The position numbers and the translations under genes were made by a program. From the IMG/VR virus record IMGVR_UViG_648276650_000006: a stretch of 7,032 nucleotides of DNA. One strand, written 5' to 3'. Below the pieces are notes generated by a model that did no database searches, was not told where the DNA came from, and was given only the letters and a program-made list of their open reading frames with translations. This DNA comes from a virus. Taxonomy: Duplodnaviria; Heunggongvirae; Uroviricota; Caudoviricetes. Below are positions 1 to 7,032 of this stretch, one piece after another. How positions within the stretch are numbered: the stretch's first letter is position 1; each line of letters starts with the position of its first letter.

Positions 1-32
1 GCGGGGGCGGGGGGGGGGGGGGGGGGGGGGGG
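1..32. repeat. Homopolymeric poly-G tract at the window edge, probably a sequencing or assembly artefact
   Basis: Seen in sequence: GCGGGGGC followed by an uninterrupted run of about 24 G (9..32) at the extreme 5' end, with no coding or structural context. Confidence 0.5.
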
Positions 33-62
33 CTTTGGGAATATGCGGGTGTGGGGAGATTG

Positions 63-473
63 TCAGTAACCGGTTTGTACCTTATACAGCCGCAGGGTTT
101 TGCTGCCCCGAACAATCTTCACATACAGGGCATTATCTTCCGCGCTGCGTACAAAACCGGCCTTCACATCGCCCTTACAGTCACCACCATCGTAAGGAAC
201 ATTGATGCCGGTCTGGCGCACCAGGTCGATAATCCCGAAGCTTAAATCTTCACAGGCTGGGCCCGGCAGGTCCTGAATCAGGGCAAATTTATGGTCGTCG
301 CTGACACCGGTCAGTGAGCACATGGACGTATTGATGTCGTTTCCCTGGCACCAGTACTCCTGGCCGGGATTGTCTTTATCCATCAGACTTGCCGGAAGCT
401 GAGCGGCACCGGCACTGAAGGCGGCAAGTGACAGAATGAGGGCAGGTACAGCAGAGGTCATTATTTTCAGCAT
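63..473 (-). CDS. Small secreted/periplasmic 4-Cys protein with N-terminal signal peptide (YfjT/YkfB-like, tentative)
   Basis: 136-aa ORF. N-terminus MLKIMTSAVPALILSLAAFSAGAA-QLP has the n/h/c layout of a Sec signal peptide with an AxA-type cleavage site. AGGAAG Shine-Dalgarno lies 6 nt upstream of the ATG at 473. Mature part has 4 Cys, including W-C-x9-C. Family name is from recollection, not a search. Confidence 0.6.
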   Translation of the reverse strand: MLKIMTSAVPALILSLAAFSAGAAQLPASLMDKDNPGQEYWCQGNDINTSMCSLTGVSDDHKFALIQDLPGPACEDLSFGIIDLVRQTGINVPYDGGDCKGDVKAGFVRSAEDNALYVKIVRGSKTLRLYKVQTGY

Positions 474-539
474 GGTCTTCTTCCTGAATTAATCCAGCCC
501 GCTGTCGGGCAAAATGAGAGAGGTTGATATCGGGTGTTA

Positions 540-977
540 TCAGAAGCGCCGGTAGCGAAACAGCTCTTTGCCCTGGTAAAGTGCCACCAGGTCGTCATAT
601 TCCGGCTTCTTCTGGTTGGGTTTAAAGGTCACTACCGTGCCCGGACGGCACAGGTCTTTTACGGTGAGTCCGTATTTCTTGTCCGGAGTAATGGTGAATC
701 CTTTCGACACATCGTTGCGCATGATAGTTATCCAGCCCCACAGGCCGCCTTCGCAGTCTTTAAAGGGTGCGGAACGCACCGTGACCATCCCGCCCAGGCG
801 GTCAACAGACATGGCTTCGCATTTTCCGGTAACCTGACGATGCGCATCGCACCAGAAAATGTTCCCGTTGTTGTCATTAACTACAGCAGGGAGGGTCCGG
901 TTATAAGGCTGAGCCTGAGCGCCCACACAGAGCAGAAGGCTGCCGGTAATACCCAGTACTTTAATCAGTGTTTTCAT
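540..977 (-). CDS. Small secreted 4-Cys protein with signal peptide, paralogous to the 63..473 product (YfjS/YafY-like, tentative)
   Basis: The track ORF 540..1103 starts at a GTG and would overlap the upstream gene by 85 nt. The internal ATG at 975..977 has an AGGA 8 nt upstream, leaves a 41-nt intergenic gap, and gives MKTLIKVLGITGSLLLCVGAQA-QP, a typical signal peptide. Shares the W-C-x9-C pattern with the neighbouring ORF. Confidence 0.55.
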   Translation of the reverse strand: MKTLIKVLGITGSLLLCVGAQAQPYNRTLPAVVNDNNGNIFWCDAHRQVTGKCEAMSVDRLGGMVTVRSAPFKDCEGGLWGWITIMRNDVSKGFTITPDKKYGLTVKDLCRPGTVVTFKPNQKKPEYDDLVALYQGKELFRYRRF

Positions 978-1018
978 TACGTTGGTCCTAAACAGAGAAA
1001 GAATCAGGTAGCGGTCAT

Positions 1019-1555
1019 TCAGGCCCAGACAGTCAGGGCCAGCATCAAAAGCCATACCCAGAAGTAAGCCGGTTTCTGACCGAGAGTTTTCGCCCGCCGC
1101 CACAGATAGAACGGCACCAGCCAGGCCAGTTTGCCGAACGTGGTGGTGTCCACTCCGGCCTTACGCAGGCGTCGTTCATCGAGATACCCCAGAGCAATAT
1201 TGAGCAGCAGCGTGATAAACCAGTACTGCCCACCCGAGACGGCATCATATGCCTCGTCAAATGACATCCCGCTCAATCCTGCAGTCCACAACTCCAGCGC
1301 GTAGCCAATGAAGGGAGCAAATGCCAGCGTCCACACAACGCCACCCGGAATGCGGTTCCCCGGCAGCGCTGGTGGTGTGGTGCTCCGGAGCAGCGTCGAA
1401 GCCAGCGGAGTAGCGGAGACCGGCTGCCACTCTGCCATTCCCTGTCGCCACACCAGAGTGGATGCAGTCAGTTCACCGCGCATAATCAGGCTGGTGATGT
1501 CGTCTTCGGTCACATTGTCGTGGCGTATGCCATTTTTCTCGTAATGCCAGGTCAT
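1019..1555 (-). CDS. Membrane protein with N-terminal DUF4339 (GYF-like) domain and hydrophobic C-terminal half
   Basis: 178-aa ORF. N-terminus WHYEKNGIRHDNVTEDDITSLIMRGELTASTLVWRQGMAEWQP matches the DUF4339 pattern as I recall it (W-Y..G...GP/V..L..L...G.L...TLVW..GM..W.P). C-terminal half has several hydrophobic stretches (DUF2628-like by recollection). AAGGA Shine-Dalgarno about 6 nt upstream of the ATG at 1555; 25-nt gap to the upstream regulator stop. Confidence 0.6.
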   Translation of the reverse strand: MTWHYEKNGIRHDNVTEDDITSLIMRGELTASTLVWRQGMAEWQPVSATPLASTLLRSTTPPALPGNRIPGGVVWTLAFAPFIGYALELWTAGLSGMSFDEAYDAVSGGQYWFITLLLNIALGYLDERRLRKAGVDTTTFGKLAWLVPFYLWRRAKTLGQKPAYFWVWLLMLALTVWA

Positions 1556-1580
1556 TGTTTTTCCTTCTTAACAGAGGTAA

Positions 1581-2204
1581 TTAAATCAGTGTGTTGCCCG
1601 GCTCCTCCTCTGAGGGCCCAGGAGACAGGACTTCACGGATACAGCTGAAGTGCGGAAGGGCCCGGATAAAGCCCGCCTGTGTGGTTAACTGGCTGAGACG
1701 TTTTAGCGGGGTGAAAGTTGTATTGAGGACTGTCACCGCATGGATGGTCGCCAGTGGATGCACGGTGATATGCCCGTTAAGTTCACCGGTGAGGTACCAG
1801 CAGCCGTCGAGTGATATCAGGCGGTACGGGGCCAGTCCGTCACAGCGCTCTCCCTCAGCCAGCAGCAGTACCCGTTGGCAGGCGGTAATAGCACTGACGA
1901 GACGGTAGAACACCAGTGAGGTGGCCGGTGATATAGTCTGTGGCGGTTGCCACACCAGACAGGGCATCCCTCCTGCTGTGAGCAGCATGCCCGCCAGACG
2001 CCGGTCCAGCCCCGGAAAGATATCGGCCAGTCCGGACCGGTGAGCAAAGGTCAGCGCATCCAGCTCACCCTGTACGCCCCCACTGGTGCTGCGCAGGCGG
2101 CATTGCCCTCGTCGATACTCCAGGTCCAGATACATCAGCCGTTCGCGAAAATCCCGTCGCAGGGTACGGACTGACACACTAAACTCTGCAGCCAGCCGGG
2201 CCAT
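1581..2204 (-). CDS. yfjR: HTH (DeoR-type) + WYL-domain transcriptional regulator, YfjR-like; coordinates are the longest canonical-start ORF, which appears N-terminally truncated
   Basis: ORF contains the HTH recognition region LAAEFSVSVRTLRRDF and a literal WYL motif (LDGCWYLTGELNGH). The frame stays open 29 codons upstream (to 2291), encoding (I)TQAERRHDRLAVRLSLIISRLVAGETLN, which completes helix 1 of the HTH. That stretch has no ATG/GTG/TTG; it begins at an ATA codon (2289..2291) with GGAG 7 nt upstream. Symbol is by family recollection; paralogues in other islands are possible. Confidence 0.55.
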   Translation of the reverse strand: MARLAAEFSVSVRTLRRDFRERLMYLDLEYRRGQCRLRSTSGGVQGELDALTFAHRSGLADIFPGLDRRLAGMLLTAGGMPCLVWQPPQTISPATSLVFYRLVSAITACQRVLLLAEGERCDGLAPYRLISLDGCWYLTGELNGHITVHPLATIHAVTVLNTTFTPLKRLSQLTTQAGFIRALPHFSCIREVLSPGPSEEEPGNTLI

Positions 2205-2499
2205 GTTCAGCGTCTCACCGGCAACCAGGCGGCTGATTATCAGTGACAGCCTGACAGCCAGTCGGTCGTGACGGCGCTCTGCCTGTGTTATCTCAAATCT
2301 CCGTAATAATTAACTGACTGAATATGAAATGATTCTAAAGAGGGGGGCGGACAGGGTATGGACATGGAATGAACTATTTTTTATCTGCCACCGGAGGCAA
2401 GCCCAACGCGGCGCACCGTGAAATACGGTGATAAAACACTCAATCCAATGGAGGTAAAACGGACAGGGAGTGTCCTTTCCCAACATGCTGATAACAAGC

Positions 2500-3324
2500 T
2501 CAGGACTGAAACCCACTCAGCATCGCTTCCGCCATCACCCAGAGAGCCCGGTTGAGCTTCACATCGCCGTCGATACCACGCACGGCGCGGGTGTGTGTTC
2601 GCCCACCTTTTGCACTCCGGCCACTGAGCCCGCCCTTAATCAGGTTCTCCTGAATACGCTGGTATGTGGTCCACAGGTCATTGCTCTCATCCTGCCAGCG
2701 GCGTGGGGAGAGTATCTGAGGTGCTGTCACCGGCTGGTGGTCCTCACCAAAACGGTACGTCAGTGCAGCCTGTGCCAGAGCCTGTTGTGCAGGTGGCGGC
2801 AGCATCAGCGACTGCATGGCATCCCGCTTCTCTTCCACACGGTCAAAAATACCCAGCACTTCATACGCCCCCTCAATCACCTGACTCACGACATCTCCTT
2901 TGTGCGGTACCCGCACCTCGCCGAACGATTCACCGCAGACAAGCCCGTTCTGGCATACCGCACGGAATAATCCCGGTAACATCTGATACGAGCTGGTGCC
3001 GTCATGAGAATTGAGCAGAATGATTTCTGGGACTTGCTTGCCAGTAATTTGTCCCTCCCGGCGCAGACGTAACATATGCTTTGTATGCTCGCGACGCCCT
3101 GGGTCACGCACCCGGGTCTGGCAGGCAAAGAAAGGCTGAAAGCCTTCACACTGCAGATTTTCAAGAACGGTAATGGTTGGTATCCAGGTATACCGTGCGC
3201 TACGAGACGCATGCTTCTCCTCGCTGAAGACACTGGGCACTACACGAAACAGCTCTTCCTGGGTTAACGGACGGTCACGACGAATAAGGTTTGCTGCGCC
3301 AAAGCGCGAAGCCAGACGGGTCAT
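2500..3324 (-). CDS. yfjQ: DUF932-family protein (YfjQ/YafZ-like)
   Basis: 274-aa product from the second in-frame ATG (3322..3324), which has a perfect AGGAG 7 nt upstream; the track start at 3339 lacks an SD. N-terminus MTRLASRFGAANLIRRDRPLTQEELFRVVPSVF matches my recollection of YfjQ/YafZ proteins, and length is close to the ~273 aa I recall. Lies directly after a GTPase gene as in CP4-57-type islands. Confidence 0.6.
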   Translation of the reverse strand: MTRLASRFGAANLIRRDRPLTQEELFRVVPSVFSEEKHASRSARYTWIPTITVLENLQCEGFQPFFACQTRVRDPGRREHTKHMLRLRREGQITGKQVPEIILLNSHDGTSSYQMLPGLFRAVCQNGLVCGESFGEVRVPHKGDVVSQVIEGAYEVLGIFDRVEEKRDAMQSLMLPPPAQQALAQAALTYRFGEDHQPVTAPQILSPRRWQDESNDLWTTYQRIQENLIKGGLSGRSAKGGRTHTRAVRGIDGDVKLNRALWVMAEAMLSGFQS

Positions 3325-3350
3325 AAGCAGACTCCTCATGATGGAAAATT

Positions 3351-3387
3351 AAATACAAAAAGCCCCGCCGCAAAATCGCGGCAGGGC
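3351..3387 (-). terminator. Rho-independent terminator-like hairpin between the GTPase and DUF932 genes
   Basis: Minus-strand RNA: stem GCCCUGCCGC / loop / GCGGCGGGGC (10 bp, one mismatch; plus 3362..3387), followed 3' by UUUUUGUAUUU (plus-strand A-run 3351..3361). Begins about 30 nt after the GTPase stop and ends about 25 nt before the DUF932 start. Confidence 0.55.
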
Positions 3388-3418
3388 TCAGGAAACTACG
3401 GGTTAGAAGGGTTAATGT

Positions 3419-4282
3419 TCAGAAGAAGAAATTCCAGACTGCACGGGCGACTGATACCACGATGTCGCGCACAGACTGGATGACTGACCGAACCTGGGCC
3501 GGTATCAGGGGCATGGAACTTACTGTATCCAGTACCGAGCCGACCGTTTCACCAAAATCGTCACGGGCTTTTTTATTAACGGCATCGGTACGAAGTGGCG
3601 CACTGAGTTGTACTGCCACCTGACTACTGGCCTCCCGTGGCAAGCAACGAATCATCCGCTCAGCCATCATCCGCAGCCCCCACTGCAAACGTATCGACAC
3701 CGCACAGACAGGGTTTACAGGTTGGAACAACTCATGCAGCAGACAGATTTTGAGGCTGATATTTCGTTTCTGCTCTGTAGACAGCTTTTCACCACCGCAG
3801 GTGGGTTCAACCTTGTCAGACTGGCTGATAACAAACAACACCTTATGCCGGTATGCTTCACCAATCACCTGCCGGTAAAAATGTTCATCTACGGCCAGCG
3901 CCCGATCATCACCCTTAATCAACCACAGAACCAGATCCAGCTGGGGGAGCTGTTTACGGTACAGCGTGGCATACTCTGTATCCCGGCGCTCAGACTCCCC
4001 GACGCCGGGTAAATCCACCAGCGTCATAAAGCGCTTCCCCACTTGCAGGCGAAAGCGTAAGGGTTCGCGTGTGCAGGCGGTCACATCGCTGACCGGTGAA
4101 ATCTCACCGGTAAACAGGGCATTACATAAGCTGCTCTTGCCCGAGCCAGTTTTACCCATGATGCCAATCACCGGCTCATAGTCAGTAAGCTGATTTATCT
4201 GCTGCAGAATACGCTCTGATGCCCAGTGCGGCAGGTTAGAAAGCGAATGCTGCAGTGACTGTAAACCTTCAAATTGATTCAT
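3419..4282 (-). CDS. yfjP: P-loop GTPase of the YfjP/YkfA/YeeP family (50S ribosome-binding GTPase-like domain)
   Basis: 287-aa ORF. Walker A/G1 GIMGKTGSGKSS, G3-like DLPG. AGGAG Shine-Dalgarno 5 nt upstream of the ATG at 4280..4282. Length matches what I recall for YfjP/YkfA (287 aa). The yfjP versus ykfA assignment rests on the downstream DUF932 and WYL-regulator order and is not certain. Confidence 0.7.
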   Translation of the reverse strand: MNQFEGLQSLQHSLSNLPHWASERILQQINQLTDYEPVIGIMGKTGSGKSSLCNALFTGEISPVSDVTACTREPLRFRLQVGKRFMTLVDLPGVGESERRDTEYATLYRKQLPQLDLVLWLIKGDDRALAVDEHFYRQVIGEAYRHKVLFVISQSDKVEPTCGGEKLSTEQKRNISLKICLLHELFQPVNPVCAVSIRLQWGLRMMAERMIRCLPREASSQVAVQLSAPLRTDAVNKKARDDFGETVGSVLDTVSSMPLIPAQVRSVIQSVRDIVVSVARAVWNFFF

Positions 4283-4300
4283 TACTGCTCCTCTGAAATG

Positions 4301-4335
4301 AAAACAAAAAAGGCAAGACCGTGAGGTTCTGCCTT
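4301..4335 (-). terminator. Terminator-like hairpin plus U-tract in the leader immediately upstream of the GTPase gene
   Basis: Minus-strand RNA: about 11-bp stem (plus 4310..4320 pairing with 4325..4335; one mismatch, one wobble), loop GUGA, followed 3' by UUUUUUGUUUUC (plus A-run 4301..4311), then the AGGAG SD and ATG. It faces transcripts entering from the AT-rich cargo side. Confidence 0.5.
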
Positions 4336-4384
4336 TAATGAGGTATGTTCAGGGGAATGATATATATCTGAATATTTTTAGAAT

Positions 4385-4430
4385 GCTGATAGGCCGTTCT
4401 GTGCCAGGAGCGGACGTTGCGAACGCTTTG
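4385..4430. repeat. Left copy of a degenerate ~46-bp direct repeat (core GTGCCAGGAGCGGAC)
   Basis: Manual alignment to 5363..5408 at a constant offset of 978 bp: core 15-mer 14/15 identical, flanks 9/16 and 7/15, about 30/46 overall. Located in the divergent intergenic region upstream of the Toprim gene. Confidence 0.45.
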
Positions 4431-4570
4431 AGACTGATGATCATTTCAGATGTTAATTAATTAAAGGCATGGTAATGTTTAGGCTCTGTAGGGTAAATTT
4501 CCCGCAGTATTTTCGGTTATCAATAGCTTGTGGAGTTAACTCTCAGAGGGGGCAGTTAGTGGGAACAACA

Positions 4571-5269
4571 ATGGAGGACATCCAATACGAAGAAATGTTA
4601 AATGAGCTTCTATTCGAAAAAGTAATGAAGAATGAAGCAAAAAAACAATGCATTTACATTTTTGTCGAAGGTGAGTCTGAAGAACTTGCTTTTCAACCCT
4701 TACTTGAAGACTGTGGTATAGATTTCGATAAGCTTGGTATTGTAATTGCAAATTACAATGGGATTGGTAACTTAAAACACGCCATAAGACTTCTACATAA
4801 AACATTGAGCCATGATCGACCAATAATAGTAACGTATGATGATGATCATGAAGGAAAAATAATAAAGAAAATAAATAGCCCATTGATCACATACTTTAAA
4901 ATACCATTTAGCCCTGTAGTTTCTTATAATGATGGAACTTTAGGCGGAACATTTGAAGAAAGCTTTCCTAAAGATTGCTTTATAGAAGCTTGCTTTCAGC
5001 AAAATGTTATAGCTAGTTCTTTTTTATCAAAACGTAATGACTTTGAAAAAAAATTCAATCCAACTCAGCCATGGTTAGCTCAATTAGCACAATTCATTTC
5101 TTCCAATGGTGGGACTCCTAATTCTATAAATAAAACAAAATTAGCTGAAAACATGATGCTTTCAGTATCTCAGATACCTGAAACCTATAATGAGTTAGCA
5201 AAGTTAATCATTGATATTAGAAACAAGACCCCAATAAAACACCCTGAAAATGTAGATTTGAATTTGTAA
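4571..5269 (+). CDS. Standalone Toprim-domain protein, a putative nuclease with an OLD/AriB-like catalytic core
   Basis: 232 aa from the ATG at 4571, where G+C content drops; the track ORF begins at ATG 4469, which is an alternative start. Toprim signature seen directly: hydrophobic strand IYIFVEGESEE with E33, and IIVTYDDDHEGK with D90-x-D92-x-x-G95. No Walker A motif in this ORF or in any adjacent ORF. Markedly AT-rich with A/T-ending codons, unlike the backbone. Confidence 0.6.
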   Translation: MEDIQYEEMLNELLFEKVMKNEAKKQCIYIFVEGESEELAFQPLLEDCGIDFDKLGIVIANYNGIGNLKHAIRLLHKTLSHDRPIIVTYDDDHEGKIIKKINSPLITYFKIPFSPVVSYNDGTLGGTFEESFPKDCFIEACFQQNVIASSFLSKRNDFEKKFNPTQPWLAQLAQFISSNGGTPNSINKTKLAENMMLSVSQIPETYNELAKLIIDIRNKTPIKHPENVDLNL

Positions 5270-5362
5270 ATAATACTATTTATTTTCACGCACTGATTTT
5301 TCCGCGTTTGGTAGGTATTATCGCAACGTCCTATTTTCACTCATAGCTGCCCTACCTACCTT

Positions 5363-5408
5363 CTTGATGGGCAGCTTCGTGCCAGAAGCGGACATAGCAT
5401 CCGCTAAA
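5363..5408. repeat. Right copy of the degenerate ~46-bp direct repeat (core GTGCCAGAAGCGGAC)
   Basis: See the left copy at 4385..4430. This copy lies about 95 nt downstream of the Toprim gene stop and contains a small hairpin, AGCGGA / loop CATAGCA / TCCGCT. Confidence 0.45.
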
Positions 5409-5790
5409 GTAAAAGCAGGCGTTAATACCTGTGAGGGGTAAAAACGCGCATCGATTAACAAGAGTAACTGTAGTGATTCACAATCATGAAAAAATTTTCT
5501 TTATACAGAATAAGAAGCCATTTAATATGGTTAGAAGATTTAATTTAAGAGTAAATTATATATAATATATGGCTAATTAACTTATGTTAATGGAACTATA
5601 AAATGAAAACTTCAATGAGTTAATCGGTGGATTAAATAAATATATCGTTCCTGGACTTCAGAGAGATAAGACTAATGATTTTCAAAAATAGATTTCTGAA
5701 CAAGCAGTGAAAGTGTGGGGTGTTAACTAATACATCAAGATATACTTTAAACGGATAATATATAAAGTCACAATCAAAGGTAGATGAAAA

Positions 5791-6813
5791 ATGTTAGACT
5801 TAGAATATGCTGTAACTGAGCCTTTTTTAAATTACCATTTATTTCATGAAGGATTAAATACGAAGGTTAAGGTTTTAACCTCATCACTTAATCATGTGAT
5901 TGAATATTTATTGACGCCAGGCAATGAAAATAAAATGAATGAGCTCATTAAGAAAACTGATAAATCTTGGCAATTCCCGCCGAATTTTTCACTTCCAAGC
6001 CCTCCAGTTGATGAATCAAATTTAAAAAATAAAACATCATCAAGAAGACTAGATAAGGAAGAGGATAATAATGAATTAGATTATCAATTAAAGAAAAAGG
6101 AATTAGCGCAAGAGATGTTGTATTGGTATGTAAGTGAAATGGCTATATTTGGCACTTTTTCTGCTTTGGATGATTGTATTGTCGATATTGATTCTTGGTT
6201 TTCAAGTTGGGCAATGTTTAATAACACTCAAGATAAAAAATCGGAATCAACCAGTAGTAACAAAATTGAAAGGTTATATGATTCACACGAATGGAACATG
6301 AAGAACATAAAGACATTCCTTCCGATTTATGAGTATTTTTCAGCAGTTAGAAATTCAATAGCTCATAGGCAATCCAAAGCATCTCATAAGTTATCAGAGA
6401 TATCAAAATCCCAAGAATTAAAAGAGTCAGTAGAGAGAAACTTCCCAAAAGGTAAACCATTAAGTGAATTTGAATATAATGAAGATATATTCATCTCTCC
6501 AAAAACGTCGTTGCTTTGTTCTCACATAATAAGATTAATTTTCGAAGATATCAATAAATACATCATAAAAAAAATGGGTATTGAAGGTATCATCTACATG
6601 TCATGCAAACTTGCATTTGAACCATCATCTTATAATGAAAGCAAAGTTGTTAACTTAGCTAGAAATAGATTGAACGAAATCGTTAGTGGTCGATATCATG
6701 TAATTATAAAAGGTGAGGATGAAGCCGTTAAGGTTGCTGAGTCACTTGGCATTTGGCGTGATTGCGCTAAATTTCATGCGAACAATATGAGGAAATTAGA
6801 TCCAAAATTCTAA
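5791..6813 (+). CDS. Hypothetical 340-aa protein with an R-x4-H (RNSIAH) HEPN-like motif; candidate Abi-like RNase
   Basis: Long uninterrupted AT-rich ORF. AAGG lies about 10 nt upstream of the ATG, a weak SD. No P-loop. The single motif R187-N-S-I-A-H192 (nt 6349..6366) has the RNxxAH form common in HEPN RNases, within a predicted helical stretch (FLPIYEYFSAVRNSIAHRQ). The CDS call is stronger than the functional call, which rests on one short motif. Confidence 0.6.
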   Translation: MLDLEYAVTEPFLNYHLFHEGLNTKVKVLTSSLNHVIEYLLTPGNENKMNELIKKTDKSWQFPPNFSLPSPPVDESNLKNKTSSRRLDKEEDNNELDYQLKKKELAQEMLYWYVSEMAIFGTFSALDDCIVDIDSWFSSWAMFNNTQDKKSESTSSNKIERLYDSHEWNMKNIKTFLPIYEYFSAVRNSIAHRQSKASHKLSEISKSQELKESVERNFPKGKPLSEFEYNEDIFISPKTSLLCSHIIRLIFEDINKYIIKKMGIEGIIYMSCKLAFEPSSYNESKVVNLARNRLNEIVSGRYHVIIKGEDEAVKVAESLGIWRDCAKFHANNMRKLDPKF

Positions 6814-6899
6814 CCTTATCGCGAAATAATTTATGTGCCAGAGTTTCCCTGGCGCTATTGCGATAATGTTTTATTGGCCTATGCCTCGCAGATTAACAC

Positions 6900-6928
6900 A
6901 GGGCGATGTTAAAAGTCGCCCTTTATAG
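6900..6928 (+). terminator. Candidate intrinsic terminator downstream of the HEPN-like gene
   Basis: Plus strand: stem (A)GGGCGA / 9-nt loop / TCGCCC(T), followed by TTTATAG; about 90 nt after the stop at 6813. Short stem and weak U-tract. Confidence 0.35.
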
Positions 6929-7032
6929 TCAGAACAGATTCCTACTTCCGCTCCTCGCTCATAGCAGACCTTCAGATCCGGGAGGGTGTCCGCTTAGTGC
7001 TGTGAGTTCAACTGATGGACGCAACACACTTA

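Follow-up and report, generated by a model that had tools for sequence, protein, structure and literature searches.

The 7,032-nucleotide stretch analysed here (IMG/VR virus record IMGVR_UViG_648276650_000006, hereafter the window) is 100% identical to the chromosome of Escherichia coli MS 115-1 and carries an open reading frame (ORF) of 340 amino acids with an ATG start, whose product is a member of a previously unnamed protein family. This family likely belongs to the HEPN superfamily and is outside every named HEPN family, and the protein is probably a stand-alone metal-independent HEPN endoribonuclease that acts in phage defence. It represents a new unnamed family inside a well-known superfamily and a known class, that of single-gene HEPN abortive infection (Abi) and toxin proteins, and not a new kind of system. 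A literature search with the RefSeq accession of the protein gave no match. The coordinates of all features are collected in Table 1.

Conservation of R187 and H192 in the family

The sequence-only reading had described the gene as AT-rich and its product as lacking a P-loop, and both statements hold: the GC content is 31.7%, as opposed to 55% in positions 1-4300 of the window, and no GxxxxGK[ST] was found in the protein. It had also singled out RNSIAH (residues 187-192) as a possible HEPN catalytic motif, warning that a single Rx4H match could be due to chance. This warning was fair, as the composition of the protein leads one to expect 0.32 matches to Rx4H, 0.95 to Rx4-6H and about 0.001 to the exact RNxxAH form. 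The protein carries four Rx4-6H matches, which is about chance level, and therefore the motif by itself proves nothing.

The evidence comes from conservation. An alignment of 100 full-length members sharing 17-55% identity with the query keeps R187 and H192 in all 100 sequences, and no other column is invariant, so that the homologue comparison proposed in the sequence-only reading came out in its favour. The remaining three Rx4-6H pairs of the protein are conserved in 3, 1 and 3 of these relatives. Position 188 is N in 82 members, H in 12 and D in 6, position 189 is C in 94 and S in 6, and R193 is kept in 87%, giving the family form RNC[IV][AV]HR, where the window protein has RNSIAHRQ. The motif is also invariant within the close clade (sequences of 84-98% identity and a 54% homologue). 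Among the representatives that cover the motif, 144 of about 145 retain both residues; in the 149 listed, R-x-[CS]-x-x-H occurs in 141 and RNRIAH, RNRIVH or RNIIVH in three more, four are fragments ending short of the motif, and one (232 amino acids) lacks the R. Since the matches score well across more than 200 residues, the invariance of R and H is not merely an artefact of retrieval.

The size of the family became apparent only with an exhaustive search. A word-indexed protein search did not reach beyond the close clade (Klebsiella, Enterobacter and metagenomes) and the single 54% homologue, and its repetition with profile A2 gave the close clade again and nothing else. When 1.84 billion cluster representatives were searched exhaustively with HMMER, 204 proteins reached E <= 1e-3 and 127 of them E <= 1e-10, with a typical length of 300-335 amino acids. 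Members come from Enterobacteria, Burkholderiales, Verrucomicrobia, Bacteroidota, phage-like contigs and plasmids. With A3, the related-locus search recovered 3 loci in genomes, 1 in viruses and 12 in metagenomes, and with A1 it recovered none among viral contigs. The family has its own N-terminal signature, TEPF..F..FHE..N...K followed by W60, and the conserved residues of this region are A7, E10, P11, F18, H19, E20, N23, K27 and W60. No family was assigned by Pfam, NCBIfam and PHROG scans of the window protein or by Pfam and NCBIfam scans of the 100 members, and searching the PDB sequences with the A1 and A2 profiles gave chance matches only. At present no Pfam, NCBIfam, PHROG or PADLOC model covers the family. 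One metagenome protein (P0024, 291 amino acids) combines a 91%-identical part, covering 32% of the query, with ComEA-like helix-hairpin-helix domains; this sequence, found on a contig of 1.2 kb, is probably a chimera that arose in assembly or gene calling.

Predicted fold and relation to known HEPN proteins

HEPN enzymes have metal-independent ribonuclease (RNase) activity that depends on the R and the H of the motif, in an active site built by a HEPN dimer. The AlphaFold model of the window protein obtained from the 100-sequence alignment is all-alpha, with a predicted local distance difference test (pLDDT) of 95.1 and a predicted template modelling score (pTM) of 0.90, and supersedes an earlier run from 7 close homologues (pLDDT 60). 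According to DSSP, helix 171-192 terminates at H192 and is followed by the loop 193-198, in line with the earlier proposal that the motif lies in a helical segment. A segment with one short helix (144-170) separates this helix from a 56-residue helix, 88-143, which bears S124, kept in 93% of members, and the conserved stretch S124-A-F-[DE]; its acidic position 127 is D in 59 and E in 37 of the 100 members, which makes D127 a candidate for the helix-2 acidic residue of a HEPN active site. The predicted fold resembles HEPN domains, and R187/H192 are the putative equivalent of the HEPN catalytic pair.

HEPN proteins have been defined by a conserved Rx4-6H in which the polar residue after R is mostly N, D or H, and by a further conserved acidic residue upstream in helix-2, typically as Ex3[KR] (Anantharaman et al. 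2013, PMC3710099). R187, H192 and the residues seen at position 188 agree with the first part of this definition. In the long helix, 86% of members have E/D at position 136 and 70% have R at position 139, a consensus ExxR pair and not Ex3[KR]. The enterobacterial clade, including the window protein, has W at 136 and S at 139 (codons 6196-6198 and 6205-6207), and these substitutions may reflect a modified active-site periphery or an altered interface in this clade.

Several comparisons weigh against this assignment. No established HEPN family shows significant similarity at the profile level: curated Pfam and NCBIfam HEPN models matched none of the 100 members except for one Las1 match at 0.008, and the probability given by hhalign for the family against a DUF86/HepT alignment, made of real PF01934 proteins retrieved with a consensus query, was 0.35%. 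Foldseek of the model against PDB and BFVD found nothing significant. The PADLOC models CARF-HEPN, Csx1 and RTasHEPN gave matches only at E 1.6e-4 to 4e-3. An alternative is a helical-bundle protein whose Arg/His pair has a non-cleavage role, such as nucleotide or ligand binding, and whose likeness to HEPN is convergent or non-catalytic. We consider such a protein unlikely, and the HEPN-like RNase interpretation is supported by the invariance of R187 and H192 and by the position of the motif, which closes a predicted helix.

Close parallels are found among single-gene HEPN proteins. AbiD/AbiF (Abi_2), AbiU2, AbiV, AbiJ and HEC-08 (DUF3644 HEPN) are likewise stand-alone, mainly helical proteins of 200-400 amino acids with one Rx4-6H, and their genes likewise lie in defence islands or on mobile elements. 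Mutation of the motif histidine in HEC-08 abolishes defence (bioRxiv 10.1101/2024.01.29.577857). The N-terminal signature and the RNC[IV][AV]HR motif are particular to the present family as opposed to these. None of the 100 members matched Pfam or PADLOC models of these families, and membership in Abi_2 or another Pfam HEPN Abi family was discarded, with no hit at E <= 0.01 for the 100 members or at E <= 1 for the window protein. HepT/MntA, a type VII toxin-antitoxin system, consists of a DUF86 toxin of about 110-140 amino acids with Rx4HxY and a neighbouring MNT nucleotidyltransferase antitoxin, minimal toxins of this kind being SO_3166 (PDB 5YEP) and the Aphanizomenon HEPN toxin (PDB 7AE2, 8XDJ). 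The window protein has about three times the length of such toxins and carries helical extensions, conserved in the family, at both its N and C termini; its motif lacks the Y at H+2, and no MNT antitoxin neighbour occurs beside the family gene in any context examined. Together with the negative hhalign result, this led us to reject membership in HepT/MntA. In contrast to the Csm6/Csx1 CARF-HEPN RNases, the window protein has neither a CARF sensor domain nor a CRISPR context.

Genomic contexts and proposed function

The gene travels within a DNA unit which blastn detected at 96.6% identity over 1604 nucleotides (nt) in a Klebsiella quasipneumoniae chromosome (L003), at 86% in a P4-like satellite (L006/L009) and at 83% plus 77% in a metagenome contig (L010). 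The flanking sequences are different in each context, and the HEPN-like gene is mobile on its own. In E. coli MS 115-1 it lies in a variable slot of a CP4-57-like island, just beyond a YfjP-like GTPase gene, and of 5,426 complete E. coli genomes just one has the AT-rich stretch whole; in other E. coli the same slot holds retron Eco8, Dsr1, or a kinase with DUF4238 and TIR genes. The Klebsiella copy stands between a GIY-YIG gene and McrBC, the satellite also carries Gabija, the Rhodoferax copy has an Mrr-like gene and an ABC-3C system as neighbours, a predicted prophage contains the Chthoniobacter copy, and the Cupriavidus copy is on a conjugative plasmid near RES toxin-domain, helicase and methylase genes. 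Metagenome copies are found beside Schlafen/AlbA_2, HNH, methylase, caspase or housekeeping genes. The 54%-identical homologue (L002 8001-9011) stands alone in a 38-kb phage-like metagenome contig, where all neighbouring genes are on the other strand. The HEPN-like gene thus sits in defence hotspots, and its link to defence is an association, not proof. As no conserved partner or antitoxin-like partner was found across the contexts examined, the protein most likely works alone.

From established HEPN biology we infer RNase activity, dimerisation, a trigger and a defence phenotype. Two copies would dimerise and their R187-x4-H192 motifs would build one composite active site, with N188 and the acidic residue D127 in a supporting role. 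Healthy cells would contain the enzyme in a latent state and phage infection would be the trigger, upon which host and/or phage RNA (tRNA, rRNA or mRNA) would be cut without metal ions, leaving 2',3'-cyclic phosphate ends. This cleavage would block phage growth through abortive infection or growth arrest. The N-terminal helix region (1-60) and the C-terminal helices (237-336) may serve in regulation, dimerisation or substrate choice. Confirmation of this function would enlarge the known set of HEPN RNase defence or toxin proteins by about 200 sequence clusters, help to annotate defence islands better and give a compact system of one gene for which two point mutants are an obvious choice.

A spacer of 520 nt had been reported between the gene and the upstream TOPRIM ORF, and we measured 521 nt from the stop of this ORF (5269). 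Given that it contains a remnant of the type IV restriction enzyme GmrSD, the spacer is mostly promoter region plus GmrSD pseudogene. In tblastn, the intact 560-amino-acid GmrSD of L010 matched the window with residues 1-33 (76% identity, E 3e-10) and 540-560 (71% identity, E 1e-4), and directly upstream in the window there is no intact DUF262-DUF1524 gene, only this 54-codon, stop-containing remnant. The Klebsiella copy (L003 7779-7937) and the satellite copy (L006 7780-7938) carry this deletion scar as well. In L010 the intact gmrSD gene (1171-2853; PF03235 and PF07510) is on the same strand and stops 64 nt before the HEPN-like homologue, an arrangement found only there and probably in L011. 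The intact pair and the common scar in E. coli, Klebsiella and the satellite therefore indicate that the ancestral unit of the enterobacterial clade was a two-gene operon of GmrSD and the HEPN-like protein.

Such an operon raises the possibility that the protein is the second component of a GmrSD module, as a regulator, a specificity factor or an RNase guard like PrrC, and that the E. coli copy is an orphan left by the GmrSD deletion. A precedent is PrrC, an anticodon nuclease of the HEPN superfamily whose partner is the restriction system EcoprrI. As a guard pair of this type, GmrSD would attack phage DNA containing glucosyl-hydroxymethylcytosine, and the HEPN RNase would be a second line, fired once a phage neutralises GmrSD. 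However, the HEPN-like gene is intact and under purifying selection (dN/dS, the ratio of nonsynonymous to synonymous substitution rates, of 0.11-0.20) in at least three contexts devoid of GmrSD, while the remnant has gained stop codons, and neither the 54% homologue nor the approximately 20 distant members examined have an adjacent GmrSD. For these reasons it seems improbable that the protein functions as part of a GmrSD module, and the guard pair is a doubtful account of the ancestral operon. If the guard pair were true, the family would be a new class of guard RNases for restriction systems, able also to act alone once released, with IS30-family elements shuffling cassettes among the defence hotspots of islands, satellites and chromosomes. 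The decayed GmrSD records the reduction of a two-gene restriction and RNase module to one surviving gene.

An HEPN RNase in one operon with a DNA restriction enzyme, as in the ancestral pair, is also known from PrrC/RloC and CoCoNuTs, the latter combining McrBC-type systems with HEPN RNases (PMC11090510). The window protein differs from PrrC in having no ABC-ATPase domain and from CnuE in having no winged helix-turn-helix or coiled-coil, and its family is linked to GmrSD only in the enterobacterial clade, a linkage lost in the window.

The distribution of the copies could also mean that the gene serves the mobile elements themselves, as an addiction toxin, a superinfection-exclusion factor or an anti-defence factor of phages, satellites and plasmids. 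The phage-like contig, where the homologue lies beside DnaB, the predicted Chthoniobacter prophage, the P4-like satellite and the conjugative Cupriavidus plasmid are consistent with this. Nevertheless, the lack of a conserved antitoxin-like partner and the failure of tblastn to find a copy of the gene in 50,697 sequenced phage genomes argue against it, and it overlaps largely with a role in defence, because defence genes borne by prophages and satellites are common. We hold this alternative to be quite improbable, and defence by a stand-alone HEPN RNase is the interpretation that we prefer.

Some of these loci deserve further comment. The 54% homologue adjoins the gene of a DnaB helicase and large genes without annotation, and looks like a moron-type insertion. 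In Rhodoferax sp. U2-2l (L012 5947-10653) the family member is directly upstream, on the same strand, of genes for a 391-amino-acid unknown protein, MC3 and a DUF3732 ABC ATPase, with the Mrr-like gene on its far side; this member could be an effector linked to the ABC-3C system. On the Cupriavidus basilensis plasmid pRK1-1 (L016), short H-NS family genes (7336-7590 and 15012-15209) flank the region of the member, and since the E. coli copy is AT-rich (32% GC), H-NS silencing of HEPN-like genes is conceivable.

Table 1. Features of the window, in order of position
Feature	Coordinates	Strand	Basis
Further IS30 inverted-repeat tip copy (TGCCAGGAGCGGAC)	4402..4415	+	Island backbone stops and variable cargo starts here
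Stand-alone OLD-like TOPRIM gene, 236 amino acids as annotated, outside the unit	4559..5269	+	PF20469 at 2.3e-9
IS30-family (ISCfr4-like) right inverted-repeat relic	5330..5394	+	Inner part 5330-5354; tip 5380-5394 (TGCCAGAAGCGGACA)
Travelling DNA unit: IS30-type inverted-repeat tip, promoter region, GmrSD remnant, HEPN-like gene, 3' hairpin	5374..6977	+	blastn
Decayed GmrSD (type IV restriction enzyme) remnant	5569..5727	+	33 N-terminal codons joined in frame to last 21; three stop codons
HEPN-like protein gene	5791..6813	+	ORF and translation; RefSeq WP_000884912.1, labelled 'hypothetical protein'
D127 codon, candidate helix-2 acidic residue of HEPN active site	6169..6171	+	Acidic in 96/100; helix 88-143
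Predicted HEPN Rx4H catalytic motif R187-N-S-I-A-H192	6349..6366	+	R and H invariant in 100 members
Terminator-like hairpin past stop codon, GGGCGA..TCGCCC then TTTAT, weak T-run	6900..6922	+	RNAfold of 6881-6945
Second IS30-inverted-repeat-like relic, right end of unit	6944..6971	+	Direct repeat D1 of 5326-5353, 71% over 28 nt; weak inverted-repeat alignment
Intact IS30-family element ISCfr4, left end, abutting unit	6987..7032	.	RefSeq annotation; inverted-repeat mapping

The TOPRIM neighbour and the cassette borders

The TOPRIM gene upstream of the unit is a separate cassette and not part of the HEPN-like unit. Its product is without ATPase domain or partner, matches the TOPRIM region of the PADLOC GajA models and has a weak likeness to the TOPRIM portion of GajA, mad4 and HEC-01B. 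The mechanically called ORF (4469-5269) begins 90 nt upstream of the RefSeq start, giving a length of 236-266 amino acids. A two-gene system, in which a DNA or RNA nuclease would work with an HEPN effector, was suggested by the adjacency of both genes on the same strand of the same AT-rich stretch and by the existence of TOPRIM-HEPN fusions in some defence proteins (PMC3710099). However, the genes occur together in only this one of the 5,426 genomes, E. coli PAR has the TOPRIM cassette (window 4401-5329, 82% identity) next to Dsr1 and without the HEPN-like gene, no TOPRIM neighbour was found beside other HEPN-like homologues in the contexts examined, and an IS30 inverted-repeat relic and the GmrSD pseudogene lie between the two genes. 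The two-gene system was rejected on this genomic context and has, in our estimate, a very small chance of being correct.

The borders of the cassettes share a 14-nt motif, TGCCAG[AG]AGCGGAC, found twice in the window (4402 and 5380) against 0.12 expected, and also past the island integrase gene (L001 26172-26185) and at unit ends in other genomes. Its counterpart in ISCfr4 is the right inverted repeat, of which it matches the outermost 13-14 nt, and the element CTCATAGC, which adjoins the motif at cassette borders, matches the inner part of the same repeat. When compared with the inverted repeat of the intact ISCfr4 at the same locus, the relic upstream of the HEPN-like gene agrees in 20/25 positions of the inner part and 12-13/14 of the tip, the two being split by an insert of about 26 nt with a hairpin. 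Thus, the cassette borders correspond to IS30-family inverted-repeat relics, which suggests, without proving it, that IS30-type insertion and deletion helped to move or delimit the unit. The island backbone is conserved up to about 4419 in some 30 other E. coli genomes.

Other explanations for these sequences were dropped. Rfam found nothing over 4200-7032, and an RNA antitoxin, a riboswitch in the spacer, an integron attC site and a sigma-54 promoter were therefore abandoned as sources of the 14-nt motif, which instead matches the ISCfr4 inverted-repeat tip. A consensus terminator scan did not flag the hairpin past the stop codon of the HEPN-like gene, which is conserved inside the unit. The copies of the motif or relic (4402-4415, 5330-5394, 6944-6971 and L001 26172-26185) are all in one common orientation, and they are candidates for insertion sequence scars, IS30 target hot spots or recombination sites. 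The relics at the borders suggest one route by which defence cassettes are exchanged between hotspots.
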